64,000 bases of DNA from a virus (Duplodnaviria > Caudoviricetes): IMG/VR virus record IMGVR_UViG_3300001580_000017, positions 11,066-75,065 of that record. One strand, given 5' to 3'. The notes below the pieces were generated by a model. It saw only the letters and a list, made by a program, of their open reading frames with translations. It made no database searches and was not told the DNA's origin. Each line of letters starts with the position of its first letter. The stretch's first letter is position 1. Of this stretch, positions 30,303 through 56,176 are shown in pieces. Position numbers and translations under genes: made by a program.

Positions 30303-31205
30303 TTATAAAATATCCAAAAAAGTTTCTTTGGTTGGTTCGCCATCTAATATATATGGTATGATTTCTTTGTAATTTAATTTATCCATACAGTAATCATAAA
30401 TTTTTGGATGAGTAGTTTTCATTTTATCAAACCTGTTGGGGCAACCATCTTTTTGTAAGCCGTATAAACACCACATACAGCCAGTTCTCGTGTATCCCTT
30501 ATCGTAAATAGAAGAATATTTTAAATTATATTTTTTAATATATTCCCATATATCTGTTTCATTCCAAAACGACAACGGTGCACTCGTGGCTCTTTTCTTG
30601 TCAAAGGCATTACACCCATATTTGATCCATTGCATTTTTCTCATTTCTGATTCTGATGCCATTGTTCCAATAATAGGATGAACTTCGTTTTCTTTTTCAT
30701 AATTTTTCAGTGGATTTTTCTTTAAATAATCACAGCATTTATCGCTGATTTTGAATGGAGCATCTAAAAGAAACATCCATTTTTTTGAAACTGATCCTCT
30801 TCCACCATTAGTTCTGTATAATCTTAATTTTTCACTTTTGGTGTTTCTTGCTTCATCAATATAATTAGATTGTTCCTTACTCACAACGGGATATCCATAT
30901 TTTTCTATTATTTTGTTGAATGGTACTTTCGGTTTAATTATATCAACATTTGGAACGGTATTAACAAATTCCACTATTTCTGGAAATTCTAATCCCGTGT
31001 TACAAAAAACTGCTTTCATGTTTGGATAAATTCTTCGACATAAATGTAGCAGAACAGTAGAATCTTTTCCTCCAGAGAAAGAACAGTAAACATCTCCCTT
31101 GAAATGTTCATAAAACTCTCTTATTCTTAATAAAGTTTTTTGTTCTTTTATTTCTAATGGAAGCTTAAACATCCACTGATTACTACTTTTTTCTGTTGCC
31201 ATCAT
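30303..31205 (-). CDS. PAPS-reductase-family (PP-loop) protein
   Basis: SFSGGKDSTVL, FCNTGLEFPE, KCCDYLKK, RTGCMWC. Confidence 0.88.
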   Translation of the reverse strand: MMATEKSSNQWMFKLPLEIKEQKTLLRIREFYEHFKGDVYCSFSGGKDSTVLLHLCRRIYPNMKAVFCNTGLEFPEIVEFVNTVPNVDIIKPKVPFNKIIEKYGYPVVSKEQSNYIDEARNTKSEKLRLYRTNGGRGSVSKKWMFLLDAPFKISDKCCDYLKKNPLKNYEKENEVHPIIGTMASESEMRKMQWIKYGCNAFDKKRATSAPLSFWNETDIWEYIKKYNLKYSSIYDKGYTRTGCMWCLYGLQKDGCPNRFDKMKTTHPKIYDYCMDKLNYKEIIPYILDGEPTKETFLDIL

Positions 31206-31212
31206 TTTTCCA

Positions 31213-33522
31213 TTAACTACATTTAGAATTTCCGCATTGTGGGCATAAACTACAACCAGATTGAAAAATTAACAAGCTTCCACAAGATTCACATTTTTCA
31301 CCCGTCAGAGTATTTTCTGGAAGATATTCACCCAATAATTTTTTTATTTGAAATATAAAAGAATAAATCGGGGGATTAATTATCTCAATTGTTTTTATTA
31401 TTTCTATTATCGGAACACGATGTCTCAACAACATTCCGAGTACTCTGGCTATTTTTACCACATTTGGTTGTTTATTGGCAGCATTTTCTAATAATTTTTC
31501 AAGATGACCATTCTTGATATATTTTTTCGCAAGTTTAATTAAATGATCCAACACATCTTCAGTTAATATGGTTGTTTCTGTATTATTCGTATTTACAAAC
31601 AACGCATTCGGCAATTTTGTCTCTGGATCAATGGTGTAAGTGATATACCACTTTTTGCCTTCTGATCTAATAACTTTTAATTTTGCATCACTATTATCAG
31701 GGAATTTGTAATCATCTAATATTTGCCATTCTCTTTTATCTTTTTCTGTGGCATTTAATACACCCTCACGACAACCATCTCTATAAATCGTAATTCCTTT
31801 TAATTCTTTTTCATGAGCATATTTGTATATATCAGAAATAGTTTCTTTTGTGGTTTCTTTTGGTAAATTTATGGTACTTGAAATTGCGGAACTTATATAT
31901 TGCTGAAGAATTGCTTGAATATCTACTCTATCTTTCCAATTAATATCTTTTGAAGTTATAAAATTTGGATTCTCAAAATGAGCATTTTCTCCAAAAATTT
32001 TATTATACTCCAACACGAGAGGATGATAGATTGTATATTTTTCTTTTTGACCGGTCTTTCCAGCTTGATGTATCGTTCTATCATAAGACAACATGAATAT
32101 TGGTTCTATTCCAGAAGAAGTTTGTAGTACTATAGAAATTGATCCGGAAGGAGCACAAGTAGTATAACCGATGTTTCTTGTTCCATATTTTTTTAGTTCC
32201 GAAAGTATGTCCATTGTCAAGTTTTTAAAATAAGTATGATTAGTCCATAGTTCAATTTCTTCTGTATTTTCGTATTTTTTTAATATTTGGCATTTTCCTC
32301 TTTCTTTGGATAAATTCACACTTGCTTTAATAGAGTGTAGATATAGAATTTTACCAATTTTATTCAAGACTATTTTTGAAGTTTCACTTCCATAAACTAT
32401 ATTTAATCTTATGAAACAATCCGCTAATCCGGTAATACCTAAACCGATTTTATTCCCCATTAATGTCGCTTCTTTGTTGATGTCCAGAGGCTCTCTATCT
32501 AAATTTAAAATATTTACATTATCAAGAAATCTTATAGAATTTTCAATTATTTCTCCAAACAAAGTATAATCAAATTCGGCTGTATCAGTAAAAGAATTTT
32601 TTACAAATTTGTTTAAATCTATACTACCGAGACAACAGCTACCACCATTATTGAGTGGTAATTCTCCACACGGATTTGTACTGACTGGGCGAGTTTCATC
32701 AAAAACCGATGCGGGTTCTTTTAATACATTATTCCAAAAAAGTATTCCGGGTTCAGCCCCCGCCCAATTTGACTCCACAAATAAATCCCATATAATAGAA
32801 GCTTTTTCTTTTTTGGTAATATATGTTCCATTTTTTAATTTAAATGACATTTCCCATTCTTCATCATTTTTTAAAGCTTGAATAAATTCATCTGATATTT
32901 TAACAGATATATTCGCGAATTGAACTTTACTTTTATCGCCTCCCCCTTTAACTTTTATGAAATCTATTATATCTGGACTTTTTATATCCATAGTTAACAT
33001 CAAAGCTCCTCGCCTTCCATATTGCCCTATCAATCCAGTAACCATAGAATATAAATCCATGAATGAAACCGCGCCAGTTGTGGTTTTTGCTGAATTGTTC
33101 ACTGGTGCTCCTTTTGGTCTCAGAGTAGAAATATCAAAACCAACTCCTCCACCCTTACTAAATAATTTTGCTTGTCTTTTTGCTGTTTCAAATATGCCAT
33201 CTATGCTATCTTCATCTATTTGAATAACATAACAATTTTTTAAAGTTGCAGTCATATCATTTGGATTTCCGAGAGCATATAAAATTCTTCCGCCCGGTGT
33301 AAAATAATCTAATGTTTTTCTAAATTTACCCAACCATAAATTTTGATTTTCAAATGTTTCTGCTTTTATTATTGCTGTCGCTAATCTGTCTCTCATATCA
33401 TCTAACGAAAATTCTAATAATTCTCCAGTTTCTTCATTCTTGGTTGCATATTTTTTCATAAACACATCAGTTGCGAGTTCATCATTATTAAAATTTTTCA
33501 AAACTTTCTTTCTTTGTTCCAT
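31213..33522 (-). CDS. nrdJ: Class II (B12-dependent) ribonucleotide reductase with C-terminal zinc ribbon
   Basis: PGGRIL, NCYV, GGGVG, RRGALM, GAEPG, TNPCGELPL, APSGSIS, KGITIYRDG, CESC...CPQC. Confidence 0.9.
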   Translation of the reverse strand: MEQRKKVLKNFNNDELATDVFMKKYATKNEETGELLEFSLDDMRDRLATAIIKAETFENQNLWLGKFRKTLDYFTPGGRILYALGNPNDMTATLKNCYVIQIDEDSIDGIFETAKRQAKLFSKGGGVGFDISTLRPKGAPVNNSAKTTTGAVSFMDLYSMVTGLIGQYGRRGALMLTMDIKSPDIIDFIKVKGGGDKSKVQFANISVKISDEFIQALKNDEEWEMSFKLKNGTYITKKEKASIIWDLFVESNWAGAEPGILFWNNVLKEPASVFDETRPVSTNPCGELPLNNGGSCCLGSIDLNKFVKNSFTDTAEFDYTLFGEIIENSIRFLDNVNILNLDREPLDINKEATLMGNKIGLGITGLADCFIRLNIVYGSETSKIVLNKIGKILYLHSIKASVNLSKERGKCQILKKYENTEEIELWTNHTYFKNLTMDILSELKKYGTRNIGYTTCAPSGSISIVLQTSSGIEPIFMLSYDRTIHQAGKTGQKEKYTIYHPLVLEYNKIFGENAHFENPNFITSKDINWKDRVDIQAILQQYISSAISSTINLPKETTKETISDIYKYAHEKELKGITIYRDGCREGVLNATEKDKREWQILDDYKFPDNSDAKLKVIRSEGKKWYITYTIDPETKLPNALFVNTNNTETTILTEDVLDHLIKLAKKYIKNGHLEKLLENAANKQPNVVKIARVLGMLLRHRVPIIEIIKTIEIINPPIYSFIFQIKKLLGEYLPENTLTGEKCESCGSLLIFQSGCSLCPQCGNSKCS

Positions 33523-33565
33523 AAATGAATTTCCTTATCTACAATATTATTTTATTTAATTTTTA

Positions 33566-34204
33566 TTAACTATTCAGTTTTTGAAGTGCCACCATCTTTA
33601 AAGCTCGTATTTCTGTTGGTGTAAATTCAGAAATAATCTCCGTTGTGTTGATATCCGGAGTTTTAAAAATAAAAGGTCTGTTTCTCACTGTGCTATAAAA
33701 TTCTCCATCTTTTCCGAACATCGGTGATCCCAATTTAACTTCCACCCCAATTTCACCGAATCCCGGATAAGCTCCGCATTTATTTGTACTGATGAGATAA
33801 TATTCTCCACTCGCTTTTGCATAGGTAATACTGTCTTGCCAATTCATTGTTCCGAGTACAATTAAATGGTTTTTTAATTTTCCTGTATCTTTTATATCAA
33901 CCACAAATAAACTTTTTTCTCTTACACGAATTTCTGGTAAAGTTTCATGTTTAAAAATTTCAATATAGAAACCATCAATATCAGTTACAGAATACCCCAA
34001 ACCAATTAAAATTGCTCTCAGTTCTCGGTGATTATCCATTTTCTTTTTATATGGTATTCTTATTTTATCTTCGCCACATCCTTCATAAGTTCTAAAAGCA
34101 CTTATAGTTCCACAATCAGGGTTCTTTGCAAAATCATCCAATCTTCTGAGACTGCTTTCTTTAATACTTTTGCTACAATACATTTTTAACAATTTTTCAT
34201 TCAT
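33566..34204 (-). CDS. Hypothetical late protein (DUF3293-like)
   Basis: IKESSLRRL, GTISAFR, L...LGYSVTDIDGFYIE, EKSLFV, WQDSI. Confidence 0.5.
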   Translation of the reverse strand: MNEKLLKMYCSKSIKESSLRRLDDFAKNPDCGTISAFRTYEGCGEDKIRIPYKKKMDNHRELRAILIGLGYSVTDIDGFYIEIFKHETLPEIRVREKSLFVVDIKDTGKLKNHLIVLGTMNWQDSITYAKASGEYYLISTNKCGAYPGFGEIGVEVKLGSPMFGKDGEFYSTVRNRPFIFKTPDINTTEIISEFTPTEIRALKMVALQKLNS

Positions 34205-34218
34205 TCATTTGTTCTCCT

Positions 34219-35235
34219 TTAAAAAATCAATTTCTCGTATCTGTTGTAAGATAAACCCAATGTATTCATTAAAACCATTATTTCCCACAAACATTGCTTA
34301 TCTTCTGCTCCACCAATTATAGTTGCTCCATCAAAATCTTTTAAAATATTAAAATCAAAATTTGGAAGTGCTATAACGATATCTTCATTTTTTAATTCTG
34401 TTTTTATTTTATCGGGAAGTTCCATGTTTTGAATATCTTCATCAGTCAATTCATCAGTGGAGAAATGATAGTTATTCATCAGATACAATAATATAGCTTG
34501 AATGTATTCCTCTGCTACATTATTATCAAGATCACGAATAAATCCATAACCCTTTTCAACCCAAATAATCCTATTCAAAAATTCATCCATTTCTTCACTG
34601 AAATCATTCGCAGAATTTTTTATCCAGTTTTTGATATCATGTTCTTTATCCAAATTCATCAAAGTTCCATTATAGAAGTAAATAATATCGCCCTTGAATT
34701 TTTTCAAAGATAAAGCGAACTGCTCTGGGGTAAATCCAAATCCTTTCGTGTATTGAGGTTGAATATCCACAACAATTAGTTTATCGCCGGTTATCTTGAA
34801 ATAACTGTTTCCGTGAATAATGTTTTGATCCTTGGCAAAACGAATTATATCAATGTAATCTTTTGCTATTTTTGATTCCATTATTTCTTGAGCGATTGGA
34901 GAATAAAATCCATTTTGCGCTTTACCATGAAAATCCAAAGGTGTGATTGTATATCCATCCCAATTAAAATCTTTTTCCACTATATCAGGAAGATAGCCAA
35001 AACATTTTTCTATATCAGGTATTCCATAGCCAGTGACCAAGTATAAATTTCCGTTATTTGTGTTGAACATAAACCTGCCACTATTTCCTATGAATATTTT
35101 TAGATAAATATTTCCGGGGATAACCTGAATGGTGTCTGGAGATTTATCGATGTTTGTGTCTTTCTCATTATACTTTAATATTTTTTGAGAAAGCTGGGTT
35201 ATAAATTTATCAAACTCGGATTTAAACTTCATCAT
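34219..35235 (-). CDS. Multi-domain hypothetical late protein
   Basis: EIMESK linker; downstream of TATAAATA 35422-35429. Confidence 0.55.
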   Translation of the reverse strand: MMKFKSEFDKFITQLSQKILKYNEKDTNIDKSPDTIQVIPGNIYLKIFIGNSGRFMFNTNNGNLYLVTGYGIPDIEKCFGYLPDIVEKDFNWDGYTITPLDFHGKAQNGFYSPIAQEIMESKIAKDYIDIIRFAKDQNIIHGNSYFKITGDKLIVVDIQPQYTKGFGFTPEQFALSLKKFKGDIIYFYNGTLMNLDKEHDIKNWIKNSANDFSEEMDEFLNRIIWVEKGYGFIRDLDNNVAEEYIQAILLYLMNNYHFSTDELTDEDIQNMELPDKIKTELKNEDIVIALPNFDFNILKDFDGATIIGGAEDKQCLWEIMVLMNTLGLSYNRYEKLIF

Positions 35236-35443
35236 TTGTGTAGGTTTTATTCTCCATATAATTTTTCATAGCTTTCATCCAGTTGTCTGCTATATCATTT
35301 ATTACTTTAGCATCATAATCTGTAACAAACAACCCGCCAGTATATTCTTCCCAAAAAAGAGAATTTTGGGCTTTTATTTTTGTTGTTGGAGATTGTTTGC
35401 TTGGCTTAGTTTTCATATCATTATTTATAATAATTTCTTCCAT
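35222..35443 (-). CDS. Hypothetical protein (true start possibly 35416)
   Basis: Short ORF; late promoter lies in its first codons. Confidence 0.45.
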   Translation of the reverse strand: MEEIIINNDMKTKPSKQSPTTKIKAQNSLFWEEYTGGLFVTDYDAKVINDIADNWMKAMKNYMENKTYTNDEV

Positions 35444-35446
35444 AAT

Positions 35447-36415
35447 TTACAAAAATTTAAGATTATTCGCCAAATGTACCAAACAAGCTCGAAGTATAAT
35501 TAATGAGTCTGTACATATTCCATTATCAGCTACATATTTTCCAAGTATTAAAGTTGCTTTGGATATGTTTTCGTCATCAGATTGAATTATGTTATACATT
35601 ATACTATCGAACTCTCGGAAGAATGTGTTGGCATCTGTATCTATTGCAATTTTTCTCAGTTCTTTTATATTTTTTGATTTCAGGGCAGAAACCAGTTCAT
35701 CTGTTACACCCTTTCCCATATCAAGAATTTTGGCATCAACTTTTGACCGATTATACATTATGCTATACTGATGAAGGGTTGCAATTGTCTTTCTGAAATC
35801 TGGAAATTTTTGAATAATTAGTTTTTGAATTACATCTTCGTCATATTCAATGTTTTCATTTTGCAGAATATAAAATAATCTTTTTCTGAATGCCAAAGCA
35901 AGCTGTCCACGTTCTTCTCTGTTAGCTGGTATCAGATTGAATAATCCTTGAGATAATCTTGATCTGAGTGGTTCTATGATAGCAGATTCATTGTTTGTAC
36001 TCAATATGAATCTTGCCACATGTTCAAGTTCCTCTATTGTAACTTTAAGGGACATCTGCAAAGCTGGTGTCATTTGCTCCGCTTCATCAATGTAAATGAG
36101 TTTGTATTTGAATGTTTTATCGGCATCGGCGTAGGTACTGGCATATTTAATAATTTTATCCAGATTGGCTATTCCTCTATCTTCCCTGCTTGATCCGTTT
36201 AGATACATCATATCAGCATTTAATTCTGTTTGAAGCACTTTGACAAGTGTAGTTTTTCCTGTTCCCGAATTTCCATATAAGAGCATGTTCGGAAGATTTT
36301 GTTCTTTGATACAACTCTCAAAATAATTTCTGATATTGTTTGTGAGTATGCAGTCCTTTAGTGTTGGTGGTCTCCATTTCTCTACCCATATGCTTGTGTC
36401 AGTTGTTTCTTTCAT
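35447..36415 (-). CDS. gp44: Clamp loader large subunit gp44
   Basis: WVEKWRP, LLYGNSGTGKTT, IDEAE, IIEPLRSR, FPDFRK. Confidence 0.92.
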   Translation of the reverse strand: MKETTDTSIWVEKWRPPTLKDCILTNNIRNYFESCIKEQNLPNMLLYGNSGTGKTTLVKVLQTELNADMMYLNGSSREDRGIANLDKIIKYASTYADADKTFKYKLIYIDEAEQMTPALQMSLKVTIEELEHVARFILSTNNESAIIEPLRSRLSQGLFNLIPANREERGQLALAFRKRLFYILQNENIEYDEDVIQKLIIQKFPDFRKTIATLHQYSIMYNRSKVDAKILDMGKGVTDELVSALKSKNIKELRKIAIDTDANTFFREFDSIMYNIIQSDDENISKATLILGKYVADNGICTDSLIILRACLVHLANNLKFL

Positions 36416-36425
36416 AATTATCCTT

Positions 36426-36773
36426 TTAAAATTTTTGTAAATATATTGTTTTGTTTAAGTTTTCTGCGAGTTTCAGTGAATGTTCTGTTCCTTTAGACCC
36501 GCCGATCCAAAAAGCGAAAACCACATCACAATTTTCTATGATATCTTTATTTCTAACAAAACCCGCCCGTCTTCCAAATTTTTCCCATTCCGGTTTGAAT
36601 ATAAGTTTTTTTATTTTAAACTCATTCGCAAAAATTTCACCAAGTGTATCTGCTCCATTTGCTCCACCAGAAATAATTAATTCTATCTCATTTACATTAA
36701 CATTTTTTTGAATGAAATCTTTTAGTTTCTGATAATCATTAAAATTTCTTGATCCGATAATAGCAACTTTCAT
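36426..36773 (-). CDS. SLOG family (DUF2493/YspA-like) protein
   Basis: IIGSRNF, ISGGANGAD, AGFVRN, AFW.GGSKGT. Confidence 0.85.
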   Translation of the reverse strand: MKVAIIGSRNFNDYQKLKDFIQKNVNVNEIELIISGGANGADTLGEIFANEFKIKKLIFKPEWEKFGRRAGFVRNKDIIENCDVVFAFWIGGSKGTEHSLKLAENLNKTIYLQKF

Positions 36774-37217
36774 TTAAAAATCCTCCCCCGCAAGATATCT
36801 CAAATAATCTAATTTGTTCTTAATATCAAATCTCTGATCATTTAATAAGCCTTGTATTCTATGAACGAATGTAGTTGTTAAATCCACTGCATCCATAAAA
36901 TTTTTATAGCTTATCATAACTGCATCACTATCCAGCTTTTTTTCTATTTCTTTTTCACTCATGGTATAAACATTTACGTCTTTTATTGAAAAATATTTTA
37001 TGCTACGAATTTTTTTATATTCAGTATCGAGTGCAGTCTGAATCTTTTTCCATTTATTATAGTGAGTTAACCAATTTTGAATTTTTGAACAGTTGTTAAA
37101 ATTTTCTTCCATATCAGAATTTATAACCAAATCTTGAATAGCTTGTTGCTCAAGTTTTTTTAATTCGGTGTATATCTGTTCGATTTTTTCTGTTGGAATT
37201 GCCTTTATTTCTTGCAT
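36774..37217 (-). CDS. uvsY: Recombination mediator UvsY
   Basis: Helical, EIEKKLDSD, RFDIKNKLDYLRYLAG; next to uvsW. Confidence 0.75.
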   Translation of the reverse strand: MQEIKAIPTEKIEQIYTELKKLEQQAIQDLVINSDMEENFNNCSKIQNWLTHYNKWKKIQTALDTEYKKIRSIKYFSIKDVNVYTMSEKEIEKKLDSDAVMISYKNFMDAVDLTTTFVHRIQGLLNDQRFDIKNKLDYLRYLAGEDF

Positions 37218-37244
37218 TTTCCCTTCCTTTTTGTTTGTAATGCT

Positions 37245-37273
37245 AAGTTAATACTAATTTTTATTTTTGTCAA
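37245..37273 (-). promoter_or_regulatory. Sigma70-type promoter
   Basis: TTGACA-N17-TAACTT. Confidence 0.65.
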
Positions 37274-37289
37274 GAGTTTTTTAGCTTTT

Positions 37290-37610
37290 CTACATATAAT
37301 CTTCTTCCAAAACTTCTTCCATATCCCTATTTGTTTTCCATAAAACTTTTCCGGATGAATCTTTTAATGAAATGAAATAATCAAAATCTTCTGTTCCATT
37401 AAGAGCGTCAATATAGTCCAATAATTTAATAGTTTCACTTTCCGGTGTTAAATTAAAATCAAGATAAAATCTGTCTATATATGCATAACCATAGAATAAA
37501 CTACACATCATCAAAATTGCTTCATTATCGGTATCAGCTTCAAATAAAATATTATCAACCATATCTTCCATATTACATTCAAATGGAACTATTTCTAAAA
37601 CATATCTCAC
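37290..37610 (-). CDS. Acidic hypothetical protein
   Basis: Overlaps uvsW stop. Confidence 0.55.
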   Translation of the reverse strand: MRYVLEIVPFECNMEDMVDNILFEADTDNEAILMMCSLFYGYAYIDRFYLDFNLTPESETIKLLDYIDALNGTEDFDYFISLKDSSGKVLWKTNRDMEEVLEEDYM

Positions 37611-39085
37611 AGCAAATTGACCTCTTTTATTTCTACAGGATAACCCTCTGTTTCGTATATATGCAATCTTTCTTTATGATGTTTCATTATGTAGTTTGTA
37701 TAGTGTTTTTCGCTTAAACAAAGATCATCATTGATATCCCATACAGTTAAACGATCCTTTTTCTCGTGCATCCTTAATCCTCTACCTATGGTCTGAATAA
37801 CTCTTATAAAACTTTTTGTGCTATGAGCCAAGAATATATGATGAATATTTTTTATATTTATTCCTGTGCTGAATGTTCCATAAGAAGCAAGTATAATTAA
37901 GTTATCTTCTTTTTCCGCAACAAATCTCGATTGTTCTCTTATATCAATATCAACGCCACCATCAATATACAGTATCTTTTTATCTGGAAATCGTTGTTTA
38001 AATAAATCTAATAAAACTTTTCCATGCTTTTCTATATACTGAAATAGAACCAATGTATTTTGCGTTCCACAATTTTCTTTTATTGTGTTTACAAGATACT
38101 CATTTCTGCGATCACTCTTCATCAAATAATCTATTTCATCATGATAATTTCTGCTAAATTCATCAGCAGCCATAACTCTTTCAGAATGGGGATATCTTAA
38201 AATAACAGAATAAACCATCATATCTGCTAATATTTTTGCTTCTTTTAATTCTTCATAAGTTCTATAGAATACCGGTTCTCCGATGTAACCAACAGCAGAA
38301 TAATAATCAATGTTTTTATTTTGCGGAAGTGTTCCTGTAGTTCCTATCCGATATTCCGCTTTTTTTAGTTTTGAAAGAATTTCGGCTATTATTTTTGAAT
38401 TTACTTTTGCTTTATGAACTTCATCAACAATCACACAATCAAATTTATCTAATTCTTCCTCTGATAACCGGTGAATACTTTGCCATGTGGAAATTATAAG
38501 AGGATATTCACCAAAACTTTTTTCTACCCCACCAGAGATACATTTTAAATTATCTCCATCATATCCATAGCTTATGAGATCAGATTCCATTTGTTTTATC
38601 AGACCAAGTTCTGATACAATCAATAAAGTTTTTTTGTTTAAATAGTTCATAAAAAAATTTATGAAGTGGATAATTGCAGATTTTCCTGTGCCTGTTTTTG
38701 AAATTATACATATATTTCTTTTCTTGATTGCATCAAAAAATGCTTCTATCTGAAAATCGTGGGGCTCCCAAGGAAAGGGAACGGTATCAAGAAATTCCAG
38801 AAGTTTATCTTCATTAATTTTTCTTTCAATTAAAAAATCTATAGTGTAACTGTAATTGTTTTTTGTTATAAAATCCAATAGTCTGGGAGTAAAACCAATC
38901 GGAAGTTTTCCTTGCTTGAATAGGGTAATTTTTCCATCCCATATTCCTTGCTTATATTTAGGAGAAAACCAATATTTGTCGGTAATAAAACTGAAATGGT
39001 TTTTTATTCCTTCATAGATATTAACATCAAAGGTTTTAATTGCTATTTCAGCATGATTTATTTTAGTTATGGTTATGTCTGACAA
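37607..39085 (-). CDS. uvsW: SF2 helicase UvsW
   Basis: KTGTGKS, STWQS, VDEVH, GTTGT, ASYGTFSTGINI, QTIGRGLR. Confidence 0.93.
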   Translation of the reverse strand: MSDITITKINHAEIAIKTFDVNIYEGIKNHFSFITDKYWFSPKYKQGIWDGKITLFKQGKLPIGFTPRLLDFITKNNYSYTIDFLIERKINEDKLLEFLDTVPFPWEPHDFQIEAFFDAIKKRNICIISKTGTGKSAIIHFINFFMNYLNKKTLLIVSELGLIKQMESDLISYGYDGDNLKCISGGVEKSFGEYPLIISTWQSIHRLSEEELDKFDCVIVDEVHKAKVNSKIIAEILSKLKKAEYRIGTTGTLPQNKNIDYYSAVGYIGEPVFYRTYEELKEAKILADMMVYSVILRYPHSERVMAADEFSRNYHDEIDYLMKSDRRNEYLVNTIKENCGTQNTLVLFQYIEKHGKVLLDLFKQRFPDKKILYIDGGVDIDIREQSRFVAEKEDNLIILASYGTFSTGINIKNIHHIFLAHSTKSFIRVIQTIGRGLRMHEKKDRLTVWDINDDLCLSEKHYTNYIMKHHKERLHIYETEGYPVEIKEVNLL

Positions 39086-39092
39086 AATTTTC

Positions 39093-39833: not shown

Positions 39834-39835
39834 TG

Positions 39836-42609: not shown

Positions 42610-42639
42610 TTTTCTTTGTCCTTTTAATTTATTTATTAT

Positions 42640-42647
42640 TATTTATA
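42640..42647 (-). promoter_or_regulatory. Late promoter
   Basis: Exact TATAAATA. Confidence 0.7.
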
Positions 42648-42774
42648 AAAGTCATACCCCAAATATACCATTATTATTTATAAAAGTCAAGAATAATTTA
42701 ATTTATTTTGAAAATAGTTAAAATAATTTTATGACCCCCATCAAAAATTTTATAAATAAGGTTATAGAATAATT

Positions 42775-42987
42775 ATGGAAGAAATTATGAAAAAATTATC
42801 AGAATATGCAACTGAACACAACATCACATATCGTACCGCATGGAATCATTTTGCGCGAGGATTAATTAGTGGAGCATATCAGCTATCAAATGGCACAGTA
42901 GTTATACCGGACAGCAATACTGCCGATTTAGAAAAAGCTATACATGATTTAAAAAATATAATTACAGAATTAAAAAAAGATAAATGA
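42775..42987 (+). CDS. IS607 TnpA N-terminal MerR-like HTH only (serine recombinase domain absent)
   Basis: MKKLSEYA...ITYRTAWNHF..G.I.GAYQLSNGTVVIP followed by a short coiled coil. Confidence 0.8.
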   Translation: MEEIMKKLSEYATEHNITYRTAWNHFARGLISGAYQLSNGTVVIPDSNTADLEKAIHDLKNIITELKKDK

Positions 42988-44183
42988 TAAGAAGAAGCAA
43001 ACACATACTAAAATTCGCGAACAAAAATAAATTGAGTATGCTTGAACAAATTTATTCGGATTGCAAGAAACAAATTGAAGTTTACATTGATCAGATAATA
43101 TCAGGGAAATTAGAGTTAAAGAAGATGCCGAGCAGTAGGTTGTTGAGTAATGAATATATCGAACAATCTAAGTGGAAAGAAATGTGCTATCAACAAATGA
43201 CAGGAATGATTGGAAGTCAATATAAACGCGCATCCAATAAAAGATTTAATTCTTATAAAAAAGTTTATGCTAAACTAAAAGAACAAAATAGATATAATAA
43301 ATTTACTTCAAAAAAATTCTCGGAATTAAATTTAAAACCAATCTATCAAACAAAATATTTTACTAAACCAAAATTAACTGGTGTAAATATAATAGTACAC
43401 AAAGATTTATTTAATTTTGCATCGGATTCTAAAAATTTTGACTCCTTTGTTAGATTAACTACTCCATATAAAAAATCAGCAGGAAGATACAAAACAATAA
43501 ATCTTCCAATTAAATATCATTCTCATTCCAATAAATTTAGAACGAGTGGTTGGAAATTAAAGAACTCTATTTCTTTGATCAAAGTCAATAATAATTTCTA
43601 CATTGATTTGTTATGGGAAAAAGAAGTCCCCAAGAAGATTGAAGGAGAATCCATCGGATTAGATTGTGGTTACAAGAAGCTACTTATTTCATCAGAGAAC
43701 AAAATTTATGATTTGGGTATGGAAAAAATTTATAACAAACTAAACAGAAAGAAACAAGGAAGCAAAAACTTTAAGCAAGCATTAACCGAAAGAGATAATT
43801 TAATAAATCAGAGTATAAACAAGATTGAAACAGAAAATATAAAAACAATCGTAGTCGAAGATTTAAAAAATGTAAAGTTAGGAAGTAAGTTTAGTAAAAA
43901 ATTTAATAACAAGCTACAGAGATGGAGTTATCCAAAGGTTTTGAATAAACTATCTATGATTTGTGAGGAACAAGGAATAAACTTGGTTAGAGTTGATCCG
44001 AGTTATACAAGTCAAACATGTAGCAAATGTGGACACAAAGATAAGAAAAACCGTTCTGGTGAACGGTTTTTGTGTTTGAGTTGTGGAATGGAGATGGATG
44101 CTGACTATAATGCATCTATAAACATTTTACATAGAGGCATATATAGTTCCTCTACCGATAAAGCTAATTTAAAGGTTAGCTGA
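42984..44183 (+). CDS. tnpB: TnpB RNA-guided endonuclease (close paralogue of 27417..28637)
   Basis: GLDCGY, VVEDL, TSQTCSKC, CLSC, DADYNAS. Confidence 0.92.
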   Translation: MIRRSKHILKFANKNKLSMLEQIYSDCKKQIEVYIDQIISGKLELKKMPSSRLLSNEYIEQSKWKEMCYQQMTGMIGSQYKRASNKRFNSYKKVYAKLKEQNRYNKFTSKKFSELNLKPIYQTKYFTKPKLTGVNIIVHKDLFNFASDSKNFDSFVRLTTPYKKSAGRYKTINLPIKYHSHSNKFRTSGWKLKNSISLIKVNNNFYIDLLWEKEVPKKIEGESIGLDCGYKKLLISSENKIYDLGMEKIYNKLNRKKQGSKNFKQALTERDNLINQSINKIETENIKTIVVEDLKNVKLGSKFSKKFNNKLQRWSYPKVLNKLSMICEEQGINLVRVDPSYTSQTCSKCGHKDKKNRSGERFLCLSCGMEMDADYNASINILHRGIYSSSTDKANLKVS

Positions 44184-44187
44184 CTGT
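44131..44187 (+). ncRNA. 3' part of omegaRNA scaffold / element right end
   Basis: Shared with 28579-28641; two hairpins. Confidence 0.7.
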
Positions 44188-44200
44188 AAAGTTTGACGGT

Positions 44201-44229
44201 AATATAACCTTTTAATTCCTGAATGTCAA
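44201..44229 (-). promoter_or_regulatory. Sigma70-type early promoter pointing antisense into omegaRNA/tnpB
   Basis: TTGACA-N17-TATATT. Confidence 0.8.
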
Positions 44230-44232
44230 GAC

Positions 44233-45483
44233 TTATTTTTTATATTGTGCAAGTTCAGACTGTAATTTTTTAATTGTCTGCTGCTGAGTTATGAGTTGTT
44301 TTCTCTGTGAATTAACTCTATTTTCTGAATCGGATGGTTTATATTCCTGTTTTATCGTCAGGGTATCTTCTGGTTTGGAATCAGGAACATTGTCTATAAT
44401 ATCACTATCAGCACCGGAAGTTGATAATTCTTTCACTGGTGTAGGAGGAATAAAAGCATCAGCATTGTTGTTTGGTCTCTTTTCAAAATTCTGAACAAGA
44501 TTATCTATTTGGTCTTTTAAATCTTCCAATTCTTTTTTTACTTTATCATCCGGTTGAGTTAGACGATTCATTGCCTGTTCTTTTGCTTCTTCTTCCGCGT
44601 TCTCTTTGACTGGAGATTTTCCATGATATTTTTCATCAATAGCAATAAGTTTCTGAATTGCTTCTTTAAACAAATCTCTTCTATCAATTGCTTCCTGAAT
44701 ATCAGATGGCATAACTATTTTCGGGTCTCTTTTTGGTTCTTCACCTTGCATATTCGGATCAGTTGAAACTTGTGATTGACCCTCCATTCCTTCTTGCCCT
44801 TCCATTCCTTGTACATTCTGTGATTGACCTTGCTGTTCAACATCATCAACTCTTTTCTGTAATTTGGACTGCTCATCTTCAACATTCTGTAATTCGTCTG
44901 GAAGAACTGAATCTTCAAACTGTTTTAACTGTAATATGGTAGTGTTAAGAGCTTTAAGTTGTGTCATTATATCATTAAGAACTTCTGTTGCATCTCTCTG
45001 TTCTTCTGTTTCTGGCTGTGTCTGCTCATCGTTATCGGCATTTTCATCGCTTTCCTGATTCTGTACACCTTCCGCTCCACTCGTGATTTCTCCTTGCTGT
45101 GACTGCTGTTGAGCTTGTGGAATAATATTTTCGGGTTGTTCGGGAATTATCGGTTCTTCATCAGGGGTTTCATACAGATAATAATTTATGATACTGTCCC
45201 AGCCTTTCATGCTTTCTACGAGTTTAACCAAATCAGGATCAAATTCTATATTTTTGCTTTCTACTACAGCCGAAGAATTTTTCTCAGTTATTTTTTTATT
45301 TCTTTTTCTACGAATTTTTGCTACCTGCATCTGCAACATTGCTTGTTTTTTCTGAATCCTTTTGAGAGGATTTTCATTTATTTCAGTTTTTTCTTCTGTG
45401 CTTCCTTCCGATAACAATGCTTCCTGTTTTTTGAGTTGTTCCAGTCTTGCTTTGTATTCCTGTCTTTCTTTTTCTGTCAACAT
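44233..45483 (-). CDS. Acidic Q/E-rich putative prohead core / internal head protein
   Basis: Coiled coils, QEGMEG repeats, LLSE/INEN/LVES/VKEN sites; two late promoters upstream. Confidence 0.5.
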   Translation of the reverse strand: MLTEKERQEYKARLEQLKKQEALLSEGSTEEKTEINENPLKRIQKKQAMLQMQVAKIRRKRNKKITEKNSSAVVESKNIEFDPDLVKLVESMKGWDSIINYYLYETPDEEPIIPEQPENIIPQAQQQSQQGEITSGAEGVQNQESDENADNDEQTQPETEEQRDATEVLNDIMTQLKALNTTILQLKQFEDSVLPDELQNVEDEQSKLQKRVDDVEQQGQSQNVQGMEGQEGMEGQSQVSTDPNMQGEEPKRDPKIVMPSDIQEAIDRRDLFKEAIQKLIAIDEKYHGKSPVKENAEEEAKEQAMNRLTQPDDKVKKELEDLKDQIDNLVQNFEKRPNNNADAFIPPTPVKELSTSGADSDIIDNVPDSKPEDTLTIKQEYKPSDSENRVNSQRKQLITQQQTIKKLQSELAQYKK

Positions 45484-45525
45484 TTTTGTGTCCTTATTTT
45501 TTAATTTTTGTAATTGCTTTATTCT

Positions 45526-45533
45526 TATTTATA
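45526..45533 (-). promoter_or_regulatory. Late promoter
   Basis: Exact TATAAATA. Confidence 0.7.
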
Positions 45534-45565
45534 AAAATTCTTTTTTATTATAGTGAAATAAATAA

Positions 45566-45599
45566 AAAACCCACTATATTATTTATAAAGTGGGTTTTT
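45566..45599 (-). terminator. Intrinsic terminator of the gp32 operon with a late promoter in its loop
   Basis: AAAAACCCACT/AGTGGGTTTTT stem; TATAAATA at 45580-45587. Confidence 0.75.
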
Positions 45600-45619
45600 G
45601 TGTTATTGATTTTGTTTAA

Positions 45620-45841
45620 TTAATCTTTTGGTTCAAACAATTTTCCTATAAGTCCGCATTTACCACATGTTTGAGAATATGAATTTGAACTATCAAATCT
45701 CTGGAAATGACACAAATCAGCAGAACCATCAACGGGATTTGCCGCTTGTGGATGATTACACATATGATTATCTTGCCCTTCTTCTACATCGGTAACTATA
45801 GAATGATATTTACAGTCAATACACAGTTTTTGTTTTTCCAT
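45620..45841 (-). CDS. Small Cys-rich protein
   Basis: CIDCKY...C.HP...C...R...CG..GKLFEP. Confidence 0.6.
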   Translation of the reverse strand: MEKQKLCIDCKYHSIVTDVEEGQDNHMCNHPQAANPVDGSADLCHFQRFDSSNSYSQTCGKCGLIGKLFEPKD

Positions 45842-45859
45842 TACTGCTCCTTTTTATTT

Positions 45860-46837
45860 TTACAAAGAATCAATAAATTCTTTTTCTTTATCGGTCATTG
45901 TTCCCTGTTCTTTATCCGTAACAACTGCTGATGCTGTTGTTTCTACTCCGCCAGTTGTTGGTACTGTTGCACTTTTTTCCCAAGGAGGAGTATCAGATAC
46001 GGTATGATTTGGGGGAGTAGCTTTAAATGTATCTACACCATTTCCCATATCAAGAATATATCCGACTTCTGATCTTATTCTTTCAGGAGTTAAATAATTC
46101 AAATTATCAATATGCTCTTGAAGATTATATGTTTGCAACATTATTTTTTCTATTTCAGCATTATCATTGGCTATTGCGGAAACAGCATTGTTGAAATCTG
46201 ATCCGTCATAGTTTGGCTGAAATATTTCTTTTCCGTTCTTTGTCATCTTTTTCACGATAACACTTAGAATAAAATCTCCACCTTTCAGGATATCAAACGG
46301 ATTATACTGTTTGAATCTTGGATCATTTTTCTGTGCACTGTCGGGATTATTTCTTTTCAGAATTTTGTTCATAACCTGAATACCATACTCAAATTTGAAA
46401 ACTTTTCCGTTGTTTTCCGGTTTGTTTGGATCATTTATAACGAGTATATTTGATACCCATTTTCTCTGAGGAATCCACCCACCATCTTTTGCTTTATCCA
46501 TCAGAGCTTCGATCTTGGAATTTTTCATTGGCCAACCGTAAGCACAAGCGGGGCAACTATTTTTGTTTTTCATGTTACTGCAATAACCACCAAGAAACTT
46601 TTTTTCTGTTCCGGGGAAATGATTGATCCCGTGATAGTAGGTTTCGATGAAGTTAATTTTTGTGTACACATCAGGAACAAATCTGATGACATAAGTTTCC
46701 GATTTGTCTTTTGCAGGTTTCCAGAGGGTTTTGTCTTCCGCAAAAGAGCTTGGTTTCTGATCCACTTTTAGCTGATTATCAACACTATCTCCAGAATAGT
46801 TGTTGACATCAAATTTCACATCAATGTTTCCGTTCAT
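45860..46837 (-). CDS. gp32: Single-stranded DNA-binding protein gp32
   Basis: LWKP, VIRFVP, CPAC, WVSNILVINDP..PENNGKVFKFEYG, NYDGSDF, acidic tail. Confidence 0.93.
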   Translation of the reverse strand: MNGNIDVKFDVNNYSGDSVDNQLKVDQKPSSFAEDKTLWKPAKDKSETYVIRFVPDVYTKINFIETYYHGINHFPGTEKKFLGGYCSNMKNKNSCPACAYGWPMKNSKIEALMDKAKDGGWIPQRKWVSNILVINDPNKPENNGKVFKFEYGIQVMNKILKRNNPDSAQKNDPRFKQYNPFDILKGGDFILSVIVKKMTKNGKEIFQPNYDGSDFNNAVSAIANDNAEIEKIMLQTYNLQEHIDNLNYLTPERIRSEVGYILDMGNGVDTFKATPPNHTVSDTPPWEKSATVPTTGGVETTASAVVTDKEQGTMTDKEKEFIDSL

Positions 46838-46908
46838 TTGTTACTCCTATAGTTATAAAGCATTTTCGTGTAAAACCCGAACCTATTGTTCTTTTACACC
46901 TTTTCGCT

Positions 46909-47526
46909 TTAATTTAAATTCAACATTTTTAACATAACTTTGTGCAATTTTATAGTCATCTGCACATCACACAAAGCATTATGAGCTTGCAAAGAATTAT
47001 CATCAGGGAAGAAACATTTATACATATCTTCCAATTTATGACTTTTATAAACATTTTTGATTTTTCTTTCAATCAAAGGAACAAGTTGCATCACATCAAT
47101 ATTCCTATTCTGAAAATGTTTATAGTATTCTTTATAATATACGGTGTAGTCCCCCGTCAACGAATGATCAGGATTATAAACTCTTGCAAAAAAATTTAAT
47201 AGTTTGTGAACATCGAAATTCACATTGTATCCAGCCACACACAAACGATTAAAATATCCATTATTACTGAATGGAGAAATAATTTGTAAAAATTCTTTCA
47301 TAACTTTTTCACCATCATCATAAGTTGAAATTTCTTCCAAAGTACAACCATTCACTTTCAATGCTTCGTCCTTTATAACAGAAAAATCATAAGGTTTGAT
47401 TTTGAATTGAAACCAATAATCAAATTTATCGGGTTCATATTCAATGCAACCAGCCATTTGTATAATTTCTCCTTCGTGCCAGACGGAAGTAGTTTCTGTG
47501 TCTAAGTACATAACAGGGATATGCAT
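46909..47526 (-). CDS. DEDDh 3'-5' exonuclease
   Basis: LDTETT, AGYNVNFD, AHNALCDV. Confidence 0.88.
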   Translation of the reverse strand: MHIPVMYLDTETTSVWHEGEIIQMAGCIEYEPDKFDYWFQFKIKPYDFSVIKDEALKVNGCTLEEISTYDDGEKVMKEFLQIISPFSNNGYFNRLCVAGYNVNFDVHKLLNFFARVYNPDHSLTGDYTVYYKEYYKHFQNRNIDVMQLVPLIERKIKNVYKSHKLEDMYKCFFPDDNSLQAHNALCDVQMTIKLHKVMLKMLNLN

Positions 47527-49017
47527 TTAATTCATTCCTTTTAGTAATTTATCTATTTCGTGTATAACCAATTCCAGTTCATTTGCTTTCTTTTTTGCAT
47601 CTTTTCTGATATTGAACATGTCCTTTACTCTTTTCGGTAAGATTCCTTTCTTATCTTGCTTATAAAATTCTCCGTTGGGTGTCATCGTGAGATTATGAGA
47701 TTTTAATACACCACTGAAATTTGTTCTAAAACTTTCATCATTTGCGAATTTATCCAAAAGAATAGTGAGCATATCCAAAGTGTTTTGTTTTCCTCCACCA
47801 GCATAGTTTATAGCTTTTCTTATTTCCCATAGATCAGGTGTAAGTTCGTTATCTTTTACTATAGTTTCCGGAGAAATATTTGACTGCATAATTTGATGGG
47901 GATGAGCAGAGATTATATCTGGGATGATAACATTAAAATATCTTCCTCTAACAAATCTTCCAACATGACCACCAGCAATTCCAACACGAGGATATTTTTC
48001 TTGTGGGATCATTTCGCCATTGTTTAAACAGTAGTTGTATAAATCGCCACTCCAAAGTTTTATGGCACTCGTGCAATCAGAGGGAAGAACCATCATACTA
48101 TTAGACAGAAGCATAACCATATCGAGAATGTGTCGTTTCTTTTCTATGTTGACCATTAAACGAACATCGTGAATATTATAATCAATGAAATGTTCAAAAT
48201 CATTTTCATATAGATCATGTAATGTTCCGTCATATTCAATTTTTTTCTCTCCAAGCTCCGCACTTGCTGCGTCATTTAAAGAATAAAATACTGTATTATT
48301 TATTCCTGAAAAATGCATATACAGTTTCATGTAATCAAGAATTTGAATCGTATAAATTTTCTTCGTGTATTGATTTATGTTCCCGTCACACCAATTTCTT
48401 ATTATAGGAGAAATGTTATAGTATTTATTCAACATTCTTGTGGTCAAATAGGTAATATCAAAATCATCACTGTTCCAACCAATCAACATCTGAATTTGTT
48501 TTTGTTCTAAAAGTTTACACATCAGTTCCAAAAGATGTTGTTCATCTACCGCTTCTCTGTAAACTGATTTATTGTTTTTCGGTTTATAATCTTTTAGAGA
48601 AAAAGTGATATAAACATCTTTATCGAATGTGTAGAATGTTATAGCATTTACGGGGTATAAAGCATCTTTCGGTTTGGGAAATTTATCAGGTGTGTCAACC
48701 TCAATATCAAAAAACCAAGCATCTGGTGTTGATACAATTTGTTCGTTTTTTCCAAATTTGTGACTAATGAATTGATATTTTGGGGCTATAACTCCGCTCA
48801 AATTAGAATGTTCTTTGATGTACTTATTGTATTCATAAGAATTATTAAATTCTAATTTATCTACGGCTTTACCATAAATATCTTTTAACTGACCGATTGG
48901 TGAATGTTCTCCAACTATGGGTTTAAATCTTTCGCTTGAGAGTATAGTTTTGTTTAAGTTTTCATCCTTATAACTATACCACATTCTACCATTTTTTTCA
49001 TATACATTTAAATAAAT
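47527..49017 (-). CDS. gp43: Family B DNA polymerase, N-terminal half (gp43A-like); probable AUU start at 49017 (first ATG 48984)
   Basis: ExoI FFDIEVD, ExoII GWNSDDFD, ExoIII YNIHDV, motif A DIISAHP...NISPET, KGILP...RK; stops in the fingers, no KxxxNSxYG or YGDTDS. Confidence 0.88.
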   Translation of the reverse strand: MYLNVYEKNGRMWYSYKDENLNKTILSSERFKPIVGEHSPIGQLKDIYGKAVDKLEFNNSYEYNKYIKEHSNLSGVIAPKYQFISHKFGKNEQIVSTPDAWFFDIEVDTPDKFPKPKDALYPVNAITFYTFDKDVYITFSLKDYKPKNNKSVYREAVDEQHLLELMCKLLEQKQIQMLIGWNSDDFDITYLTTRMLNKYYNISPIIRNWCDGNINQYTKKIYTIQILDYMKLYMHFSGINNTVFYSLNDAASAELGEKKIEYDGTLHDLYENDFEHFIDYNIHDVRLMVNIEKKRHILDMVMLLSNSMMVLPSDCTSAIKLWSGDLYNYCLNNGEMIPQEKYPRVGIAGGHVGRFVRGRYFNVIIPDIISAHPHQIMQSNISPETIVKDNELTPDLWEIRKAINYAGGGKQNTLDMLTILLDKFANDESFRTNFSGVLKSHNLTMTPNGEFYKQDKKGILPKRVKDMFNIRKDAKKKANELELVIHEIDKLLKGMN

Positions 49018-49043
49018 TTTAAACCTCCATCATTTACAAACCA

Positions 49044-49072
49044 AAGTTAAAGCAAATTTTTATCTTTGTCAA
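49044..49072 (-). promoter_or_regulatory. Sigma70-type promoter for the polymerase gene
   Basis: TTGACA-N17-TAACTT. Confidence 0.65.
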
Positions 49073-49081
49073 TAGTTATTT

Positions 49082-50647
49082 TTACAATAAATCCAAAAAA
49101 GTTGGTTTGGCTACCGAATCAATGAAAGATAAAATATGAGAAATAACTTTTATAGTCCATCCGTTTCCCATCAATTTGTATCTGTTAGTTTCTGCCACAT
49201 TAGCTATAACATAATCAGTAAAATACATATCATAGAAACCATATAGAGCTTCATTATCTTCTCTTGGTATGATAAACTTCTTTGATGGTTTTTTATCAGT
49301 ATAAACACCATATAAAGTATAATTATCAGGAACAGTTTGCAATCTTTCACATTCAAGGGGTGTTAATCTTCTAACTGATTTATTTTGAATAACAGATTGA
49401 CCCGCTATAGATGTACGACAATGAGGAGTAGTTCCCAAAGTTTTTGCTTTCTCATCATCTTTTATTGTGTTATTATAATGATCAATTACATTTGCTTTGT
49501 TGTCATCATCTAATATTAAATGATTACATCTTGGTGACATAGCATGAAGTGTAGGATATTTATCTTCTTCTGTTATTTTTTCTTCTTTGTATCCATGAGG
49601 AATATGATATAAACCGGTCTTAGCACCCATTCCACCAGCAGTTCCAATTAAAGTAACACTTTTTTCTTCTATATCATAAACACGACACCCCTGACTGTTT
49701 TTATGTGTCATTATCAGATTGTCTTTTGTTATCGTTGTCAAAGCATTTGTTTTTTCATCAAAGCGAGGTTCAAGCTGTTGTATATTTTTTCTTTGTTCTT
49801 GAATTTCTCCACTTTCATGGGCTTTTCTTATTTCTTTTCCATATAATGTTCTTTTCGGAGATAGACAAGCTTGTTCTCTTCCTCTGCTTGCTACACAGAT
49901 GGCATCTTCTTCTCTATTGGTACAAATCAAATCAGCCGTTCCTCCACCACCAATTTTTAAGGTATCCATTTTATCAGTGTTATCAACATCTCGGAATTTT
50001 GCAGAAAATCCCCTGCTGTTTTCAACTTGTCTTTCGTTGTATTTGAATAATGCATTTAAAGTTTTATCACTCAAATAATATCTATCATCAGCATTCTGTT
50101 CAAGTATATCTTTTAATTTTATTCCCTGATCTTCCGGTTGCTGAATATTTGGGATATTTGTCCAGTAGAGTCGCTGCCTATTTTGTGCGCTTAAATTTGA
50201 ACTGTTTATCAAAATGGGTTCTACTCCCATATAATCGGTTATTTGCTGTTCCCATTCCTTTTTCATTTTGACATTTTCTAATAAAAAATATTTGGGTTTT
50301 AATTCTTTTAATAATCGGAGATATTCAAAGAATAAACTACTATCTTTTCCTTCTAATCCTCCACCAAGAGAATTGGCATTTGAAAGCTGCGTGCAAGGCG
50401 ATCCCCCCATCAGCAGGTCAATTACAGGAAGATTTTCAGCATTTAATTTTGTAACATCACCAAGTTGAACAGTTTCGGGAAAATTAAAATTTGTTACCGC
50501 TATTGCATGGGTATCAATTTCCGAAGCATAGTATTTACAATATTTTATTCCAAGATCATTTAGTGCAAGTTGACCCCCGGAACAACCATCAAATAAACTC
50601 AGAACATTTCTTACATAAATTTTATCAATTTTTTCTACTTCAATCAT
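49082..50647 (-). CDS. dcm: C5 cytosine DNA methyltransferase with an expanded variable region
   Basis: SLFDGCSGG, GGSPC, LLENV, QNRQRLYW, RRLTPLECERLQ, GNGW. Confidence 0.93.
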   Translation of the reverse strand: MIEVEKIDKIYVRNVLSLFDGCSGGQLALNDLGIKYCKYYASEIDTHAIAVTNFNFPETVQLGDVTKLNAENLPVIDLLMGGSPCTQLSNANSLGGGLEGKDSSLFFEYLRLLKELKPKYFLLENVKMKKEWEQQITDYMGVEPILINSSNLSAQNRQRLYWTNIPNIQQPEDQGIKLKDILEQNADDRYYLSDKTLNALFKYNERQVENSRGFSAKFRDVDNTDKMDTLKIGGGGTADLICTNREEDAICVASRGREQACLSPKRTLYGKEIRKAHESGEIQEQRKNIQQLEPRFDEKTNALTTITKDNLIMTHKNSQGCRVYDIEEKSVTLIGTAGGMGAKTGLYHIPHGYKEEKITEEDKYPTLHAMSPRCNHLILDDDNKANVIDHYNNTIKDDEKAKTLGTTPHCRTSIAGQSVIQNKSVRRLTPLECERLQTVPDNYTLYGVYTDKKPSKKFIIPREDNEALYGFYDMYFTDYVIANVAETNRYKLMGNGWTIKVISHILSFIDSVAKPTFLDLL

Positions 50648-56156: not shown

Positions 56157-56176
56157 GGCGGGGTATTTACTCCGCC
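56157..56176 (-). terminator. Terminator-like hairpin over the gp55 stop codon
   Basis: GGCGGAGTA/TACCCCGCC stem followed by ATTTGATTGTTT. Confidence 0.55.

Follow-up and report, generated by a model that had tools for sequence, protein, structure and literature searches.

A shared C-terminal peptide on three unrelated DNA-modifying enzymes and the gp32-type protein of a distant T4-like phage

Two genes of a distant T4-like phage, lying 17.9 kb apart, encode enzymes of unrelated families whose last six residues read TFLDIL and TFLDLL, and the question raised by this locus is why two such proteins should end alike. The window analysed here is a stretch of 64,000 nt (positions 11,066 to 75,065 of the IMG/VR virus record IMGVR_UViG_3300001580_000017), and coordinates given below are those of the window unless stated otherwise. 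The first gene (30303..31205, minus strand) specifies a 300 aa PAPS-reductase-like PP-loop/[4Fe-4S]-type enzyme (PF01507, E 2.9e-29) ending in EPTKETFLDIL, with the codons for E-T-F-L-D-I-L at 30306..30326 (minus strand) and the stop codon at 30303-30305. The second (49082..50647, minus strand) specifies a 521 aa C5 cytosine DNA methyltransferase, Dcm (PF00145, E 4.8e-39, 135 bits against a cut-off of 22; TIGR00675, 138 bits against a cut-off of 100.65), ending in VAKPTFLDLL, with the codons for P-T-F-L-D-L-L at 49085..49105 (minus strand) and the stop codon at 49082-49084. An initial annotation of this DNA had pointed out the two tails (ETFLDIL and PTFLDLL) and described the genes as 18 kb apart and unrelated; both open reading frames (ORFs) read as it stated, and the PF01507 and PF00145 families are indeed unrelated.

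A C-terminal peptide common to three enzymes and gp32

The record is a linear virus entry of 75,065 bp with 30.7% G+C, about 40% complete by CheckV, and the window is the larger part of it. The identical phage is also present on a 128,336 bp ENA contig (ERZ27315072), which was fetched piecewise and has one end coinciding with the window end. The initial annotation had suggested scanning all C-termini, and when this was run on the ORFs of the 128 kb contig, the pattern F[LI]D.L was found at the extreme C-terminus of 4 of about 208 ORFs (0.008 expected by chance). The motif had been drawn from the PAPS-reductase-like protein and Dcm, and it recovered two further proteins, for which the Poisson probability (at least two extra) is about 3e-5. 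One is an N6/N4 DNA methyltransferase (PF01555; L021:15275-16033 on the 128 kb contig) that ends in NSLFLDNL. The other is the gp32-type single-stranded DNA-binding protein (SSB) of 325 aa (45860..46837, minus strand; phrog_224, E 6.8e-36; BLAST to T4 gp32, 1e-11), which ends in KEKEFIDSL and has the codons of its tip, F-I-D-S-L, at 45863..45877 (minus strand). Three unrelated DNA-modifying enzymes and the SSB gp32 carry one common C-terminal peptide.

In all three enzymes the tail lies past the last conserved element of the family and outside the folded domain. Homologues of the PAPS-reductase-like protein in phage databases and metagenomes can be aligned up to about residue 286 (of 300) and no further, most Dcm homologues stop a few residues past motif X, and in the N6/N4 family 33 IMG/VR homologues fall short by about 14 residues, so that homologues of the three enzymes end 11–15 residues before the tailed versions of this phage. 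An AlphaFold2 model of the PAPS-reductase-like protein (built from 66 sequences; predicted local distance difference test, pLDDT, 92.3) places the last helix at residues 279-288, and the tip (292-300) is disordered with pLDDT below 50. The layout is the same in the three enzymes, a last helix followed by 6–8 polar residues and then x-F-L-D-x-L. The tails are lineage-specific additions on flexible linkers, outside the catalytic folds.

The tails of the PAPS-reductase-like protein and Dcm are encoded with TTT TTG GAT and a TAA stop, that of the N6/N4 methyltransferase with CTG TTT CTG GAT AAC CTA and a TGA stop, and the tip of gp32 with TTT ATT GAT TCT TTG. The 9-mer TTTTTGGAT is mildly over-represented (10 matches, 4.4 expected) and is not a striking DNA repeat. 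Since the codons and stop differ and the 9-mer forms no marked repeat, what the tails have in common lies in the peptide, at the level of the protein, and a DNA repeat as the sole cause of the common tail is ruled out by the differing codons.

A related locus (L069), whose gp32 is 44% identical and ends in DFIDSL, carries a different gene upstream of its split DNA polymerase, encoding a 229 aa C5-methylase-like protein (P0391) that ends in NFLDLL. The DNA identity between the window and this locus starts exactly at the FLDLL codons of Dcm and extends into the TTGACA promoter of the gene for gp43A (the N-terminal half of the polymerase), while the bodies of the two upstream genes are unrelated. 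The tail therefore acts like a module set at a junction that is conserved, which is consistent with selection for the tail during gene replacement. In two other relatives (L151 and L152) gp32 ends in FIKGL and FIKTRI, and no methylase genes are present in the stretch that was fetched.

The PP-loop/Fe-S enzyme and the tails of enzyme homologues

The PP-loop/Fe-S character that the initial annotation gave to the PAPS-reductase-like protein agrees with its conserved residues: S44, G46, D48, S49, C157, C158, C243 and C246 are invariant in 66 homologues, forming an SGGxDS loop (SGGKDS here) and a CC...CxxC set of cysteines. The folds nearest to the AlphaFold2 model are APS/PAPS reductases (2goy, 1sur), followed by the sulfur transferases TtuA and LarE, and the C243/C246 pair aligns with the CxxC pair of the Fe-S APS reductase 2goy. 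The protein is predicted to be an adenylating enzyme of the PP-loop/Fe-S type. It has a canonical PP-loop and is not a true CysH, scoring 73.9 bits with NF002537 (cut-off 154), 65.4 with TIGR00434 (cut-off 165) and 51.6 with TIGR02055 (cut-off 235), and it also falls under the curated CysD cut-off. Assimilatory PAPS/APS reductases (CysH) feature a C-terminal catalytic cysteine motif of the ECGLH type; no such motif occurs in the phage sequence, the C-terminal region of which reads THPKIYDYCMDKLNYKEIIPYILDG.

Membership of the DndC family, which the initial annotation had brought up for this enzyme, does not follow from the sequence, there being no DndC model among the NCBIfam hits at E values up to 0.01. 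Likewise, no DndD/SspC-type ATPase or DndE was recognised on the 128 kb contig from precomputed Pfam labels. In the phosphorothioation systems Dnd, Ssp and BREX type 4, sulfur is inserted by proteins with a PAPS-reductase domain (PMC12914056), and a survey of Thermus phages calls the role of the PAPS-reductase-like family open (PMC11437467). From the tail alone, we infer that the PP-loop enzyme of this phage may modify nascent DNA.

The tails of homologues bear on whether such peptides dock on clamps. Among the 120 closest PAPS-reductase-like proteins, the 1255 residues of the tails contain the pattern Q..[LM]F 39 times and the 31,667 residues of the bodies do not contain it at all, and about a third of the close homologues bear tails of the bacterial beta-clamp-binding type (QPSLF, QLDLF, QMSLF). 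These occur in at least five distinct tail contexts, three of them reading to the last residue (SQPSLFDEVENE, RQLDLF and IQLDLFDNLG) and two continuing beyond the motif (QQMSLFKD and PQISMFDL). Among Dcm homologues, a few end in QDDLF, QDELF or QEDMF (4 hits in 1260 tail residues, compared with 0.6 per 1000 in the bodies), and a family of small C5 enzymes gave 13 hits to QL.L., all from one lineage ending in QLEL[VI]. There is good evidence in these sequences that such enzyme families have repeatedly been hooked, as it appears, to a hub of the replisome by way of a swappable C-terminal peptide. Phage genes of the 'PAPS reductase/CysH-like' family are as a rule assigned to sulfur metabolism. 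It is conceivable, if rather doubtful, that this family is at large a clamp-tethered PP-loop/Fe-S enzyme that modifies nucleic acids in step with replication, with phages fastening it and their DNA methyltransferases to the clamp in use by exchanging the peptide (QxxLF for the beta clamp of the host, FLDxL for a T4-type replisome). Since the peptide is also the tip of the gp32 tail in this lineage, gp32 and the modification enzymes would in that case compete for one replisome site.

Candidate receptors and alternative explanations

A mechanism that would account for these observations is that the tail is a short docking peptide, comprising a polar, disordered linker of 6–8 residues followed by x-F-[L/I]-D-x-L at the carboxyl end. 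The phage lineage would have grafted this peptide onto at least three unrelated enzymes, the C5 methyltransferase, the N6/N4 methyltransferase and the PAPS-reductase-like PP-loop/Fe-S enzyme. By binding a hub protein of the phage replisome it would concentrate them on new DNA, and modification could in this way keep pace with replication. That the tail docks the enzymes at the replication fork, whichever protein receives it, is probable as judged from the sequences.

The candidate that we would put first as the receptor, though only tentatively, is a phage sliding clamp of the gp45 type. In T4, gp43, gp33 and gp55 bind gp45 through a C-terminal LDFL motif (review, PMC9690074), and in a T4-like reference genome their tails read ASLDFLFG, TLDFLL and PSLDFLYEAND, so that the description of these clamp clients in the initial annotation was accurate. 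The tails TFLDLL, TFLDIL, LFLDNL and EFIDSL share with LDFL their composition and a core of L-D-hydrophobic-L, in permuted order. A gp44-type clamp-loader ATPase is encoded at 35447..36415 (minus strand; phrog_168, E 1e-72; tblastn with T4 gp44, 7e-32; PF21328, Gp44_lid), and the phage should therefore have its own clamp, encoded elsewhere in the genome. The initial annotation had noted that gp45 was missing from the window, and this extends to the 75 kb record and the 128 kb contig, in which no gp45 was found with the Pfam gp45 families on the record, with PHROGs and Pfam on about 50 ORFs, or by BLAST. Nor were gp33, gp59 or the C-terminal half of gp43 found on either contig with T4-like queries in tblastn and blastp or with PHROGs and Pfam; the BLAST queries were T4-like gp45, gp62, gp33, gp59, rnh and gp61, together with more than 60 metagenomic homologues. 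Of the family B DNA polymerase, which is of the T4 type, the N-terminal half is present as gp43A (47527..48984, minus strand); neither contig carries the C-terminal half, on which a clamp-binding tail would be expected.

Several observations weigh against fork docking or against the clamp as its receptor. The PAPS-reductase-like/Dcm pair by itself is only moderately unlikely to be due to chance and is weakly significant. When the last 20 residues were shuffled 300 times without reference to any motif, two C-termini alike in at least 5 of 6 residues turned up in 50 cases; overlapping loci contribute duplicate ORFs, which raises this number. In the Dcm/L069 pair, constraint at the DNA level or modular recombination makes a contribution. 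Many of the sequences behind the QxxLF counts are related members of one sub-lineage, and no clamp-type tail is present on the homologues from the cultured phages Tyrion and phiCP34O or on many metagenomic ones. F-L-D-x-L is a permutation of the T4 L-D-F-L and does not match it. Of the three clamp clients expected, one can be read on the contigs, and this gp55-like late sigma factor (56167..56928, minus strand; phrog_234, E 1.2e-25) ends in SSLSINDSAE, without FLDxL. The enzyme tails, F-L-D-[LIN]-L, fit both the gp32 tip of the same genome and the gp32-family consensus, [FY][FIL]xxL. In 36 other T4-like loci the gp33 tail (xLP[FIVL] at the C-terminus, or SLDDSFF) differs from the gp32 tip of the same phage ([LM]SYFxxLA), and because the gp32 tip is unlike the clamp-binding tail of gp33, the receptor may not be the clamp. 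In T4 itself, Dda binds gp32 residues 248-270, the acidic tip is disordered in the structure and the partner of the extreme tip is not known (PMC11551737). As a separate observation, xLP[FIVL] ends the gp33 homologues of marine and freshwater T4-like phages.

The second choice for the receptor, which we regard as rather unlikely, is the replisome protein that takes the tip of the gp32 tail. The enzymes would then copy the SSB, docking on a replisome or recombination protein other than the clamp, such as gp43, the primase, the helicase loader, UvsX/UvsY or the core cleft of gp32. This possibility is nested within fork docking, since the receptor alone differs and modification would still be coupled to the fork, without the clamp. 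The form of the gp32 tips speaks for it, as does the absence of FLDxL from the gp55 tail of the phage: among 150 gp32 representatives with less than 50% mutual identity, very many have an acidic run and then [FY][FIL]xxL at the end (DFIDSL, DFLNDL, EFLDSL, AFFDNLK), the close relatives end in DFIDSL, DFIKGL or EFIKTRI with the tip F as the sole invariant column of the tail alignment, [YF][FIL]xx[LM] describes 67 of the 77 gp32 tails from other T4-like loci, and the tips here (EFIDSL) and in L069 (DFIDSL) are of one and the same kind. The A-domain of gp32 is moreover where UvsX, UvsY, Dda, gp59, gp61 and RNase H bind (PMC3016280, PMC3012046), and the gp33 tails of T4-like loci represent another motif. 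On the other hand, homologues of the same enzymes in other phages bear motifs of the beta-clamp type and no SSB-type tips, gp32-tip-like tails are not enriched on the neighbours of gp32 in 80 T4-like loci (11 observed, 13 expected), the extreme gp32 tip lacks a known partner even in T4, and the T4 tails of gp32 (LDDLL) and gp33 (LDFLL) resemble each other, so the two classes may not be separate.

Explanations that leave out the replisome are much less probable. A hydrophobic-acidic C-terminus on a disordered linker is also typical of degrons and assembly tags, and the peptide could be read by a protease as a signal for timing or degradation, serve in assembly or oligomerisation, or join the enzymes in one complex; we consider such a function very unlikely, given that the carriers are all proteins of DNA transactions (three DNA-modifying enzymes and an SSB), that homologues hold canonical beta-clamp motifs at the same position, and that gp32 tails are established sites of protein docking (PMC3016280). 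Less probable still, and in our view hardly credible, is that the tail has no function in the protein and reflects chance or conservation of the DNA (a regulatory element or recombination junction). The weak significance of the starting pair would suit this explanation, and so would the DNA identity between Dcm and L069, which sets in at the FLDLL codons and extends into the promoter of gp43A, the gene bodies being unrelated. It is contradicted by the different downstream context of the PAPS-reductase-like tail, by the distinct codons and stop of the N6/N4 tail and the again distinct codons of gp32, by the lack of a marked 9-mer repeat and by the presence of four carriers where 0.008 were expected.

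The proposal of the initial annotation that both enzymes are recruited to the replisome is thus upheld in part. Recruitment is supported by the appended nature of the tails, the third enzyme, the L069 gene and the QxxLF homologues, whereas gp45 is no more than a plausible receptor, the tails having the form of the gp32 tip and gp55 lacking the motif. The shared peptide also offers a handle on the old question of which partner binds the extreme tip of the T4-family gp32 tail.

Genome context and comparison with known systems

The source of the window is a distant T4-like phage. The polymerase half that it encodes is 28% identical to T4 gp43 residues 19-500, and the other replication genes comprise the gp44 clamp loader, gp32, UvsX, UvsY, a UvsW-like helicase, a gp41-type helicase and an NAD ligase. 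A class II ribonucleotide reductase, the gp55-like late sigma factor, gp23 and baseplate proteins are also encoded. No closer phage relative was found by megablast against phages, and IMG/VR scans with the PAPS-reductase-like enzyme, Dcm, gp32, gp43A and a gp43A alignment gave distant relatives or none. A first metagenome scan returned no relatives, and a second returned 80 T4-like loci (L071-L150) at about 30% gp32 identity. The split of the polymerase lies within the fingers region and is maintained in the relatives L069, L151 and L152, with an N-terminal half of about 485–500 aa, and the order gp43A (47527-48984), DnaQ/RNase T-like exonuclease (46909-47526) and gp32 (45860-46837) is kept in the three relatives. 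The gp43A proteins end (47530-47570 here; L069, L151 and L152) in hydrophobic-acidic sequences that loosely resemble the tails (EIDKLLKGMN, DIEGLLK, EIDEIIKNAK and NIDNLLKEK), and probably these are merely the fingers helix at the point of the split.

Other features of the genome were noted in passing. The dUTPase is interrupted (50644-52618), with an N-terminal part and an intein-N-like end at 52028-52618, an intein-C and dUTPase C-terminal part at 50644-50943, and a 350 aa ORF resembling zinc-ribbon and restriction endonuclease proteins inside it (50915-51967); the Pfam hits to Intein_splicing and dUTPase are weak. A 212 aa protein (33566-34204, minus strand), between the clamp-loader region and the ribonucleotide reductase, gave a below-cut-off hit to S-adenosylmethionine lyase (PF23780, E 4e-5), an activity that, if real, would sit oddly beside three S-adenosylmethionine-dependent methyltransferases. 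Three TnpB/Cas12f-like ORFs (PF07282; 27417-28637 and 42984-44183, both on the plus strand, and L026:15830-17038) are scattered over the phage genome and have near-identical C-termini (ANLKVS), and no intact transposase was recognised near them. The sequence M-(N/K)-L-x-E-Q-(F/Y)-K-x-L, or one like it, opens many proteins that otherwise differ (among them 9643-10965, 11918-12397, 12464-13108 and 33566-34204 of the window, and 1222-2415 of the genome), and could represent a shared leader or a paralogous N-terminal module. The 128 kb contig also encodes a Thg1-like protein (L028:1457-2296), two nucleoside 2-deoxyribosyltransferase-like proteins (L027:2964-3377 and L025:16467-16925) and a PNKP-like kinase/phosphatase (L023:14062-14970), and the nucleotide and RNA-repair chemistry of these proteins might be tied to DNA modification.

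DNA modification is one of the main means by which phages escape from restriction, BREX and Dnd-type defences, and how it proceeds fast enough during rapid replication has been explained in few cases, such as the T4 alpha-glucosyltransferase with gp45. A portable docking peptide on several modification enzymes would be a simple and general answer, one that can be read from sequence alone. The PAPS-reductase-like gene is very common in phages, and the clamp-type tails point to the replication fork and away from sulfate assimilation. The tethering of DNA modification to a clamp or replisome is a known principle; what is new here is one explicit peptide common to several modification enzymes and an SSB, together with clamp-type tails across a widespread phage PAPS-reductase-like family. 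In the literature searched, no paper connected clamp-binding motifs with PAPS-reductase-like proteins of phages or with their methyltransferases.

Among known systems, the SSB tips (the A-domain of T4 gp32, the C-terminus of E. coli SSB, and T7 gp2.5 and gp4) are alike in that gp32 of this phage itself has the motif at the end of its tail. In T7, gp2.5 and gp4 both dock on the polymerase by tails of the acidic-aromatic kind, a precedent for two replisome proteins with a common type of tail. Usually the SSB bears the tip and the enzymes bear the pocket, whereas here the enzymes bear the SSB-like tip. The clamp clients of T4 and RB69 likewise end, or nearly end, in a short peptide of hydrophobic and acidic residues borne by a flexible linker, and TLDFLL of gp33 has the same composition as TFLDLL; there, LDFL is carried by a polymerase and transcription factors, whereas here FLDxL is carried by predicted modification enzymes and an SSB. 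The bacterial beta-clamp motif QL[SD]LF is found on homologue tails where TFLDIL stands here, and QLDLF and FLDLL have x-L-D-L-hydrophobic in common. The tails of this phage lack the glutamine, however, and the phage has its own clamp loader and presumably its own clamp.

DndC, SspD and BrxP have in common with the phage protein a PP-loop domain of the PAPS-reductase fold, which is proposed in those systems to mobilise sulfur for modification of the DNA backbone (PMC12914056), whereas the phage protein of 300 aa stands alone, without recognised partners, and has APS/PAPS reductases as its nearest folds. Eukaryotic Dnmt1 is a cytosine-5 methyltransferase tethered to the sliding clamp PCNA, giving replication-coupled methylation (PMC9690074), but it is a maintenance methylase with an internal PCNA-interacting peptide (PIP) box, while the phage motif is at the C-terminal tip and on three enzyme families. 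The T4 alpha-glucosyltransferase co-purifies with gp45 (PMC13216743, confirming Sommer 2004) and is similarly a phage DNA-modification enzyme tied to the sliding clamp and proposed to modify DNA during replication; it acts on hydroxymethylcytosine and has no defined shared tail motif, whereas in the present phage several enzymes carry one explicit peptide.

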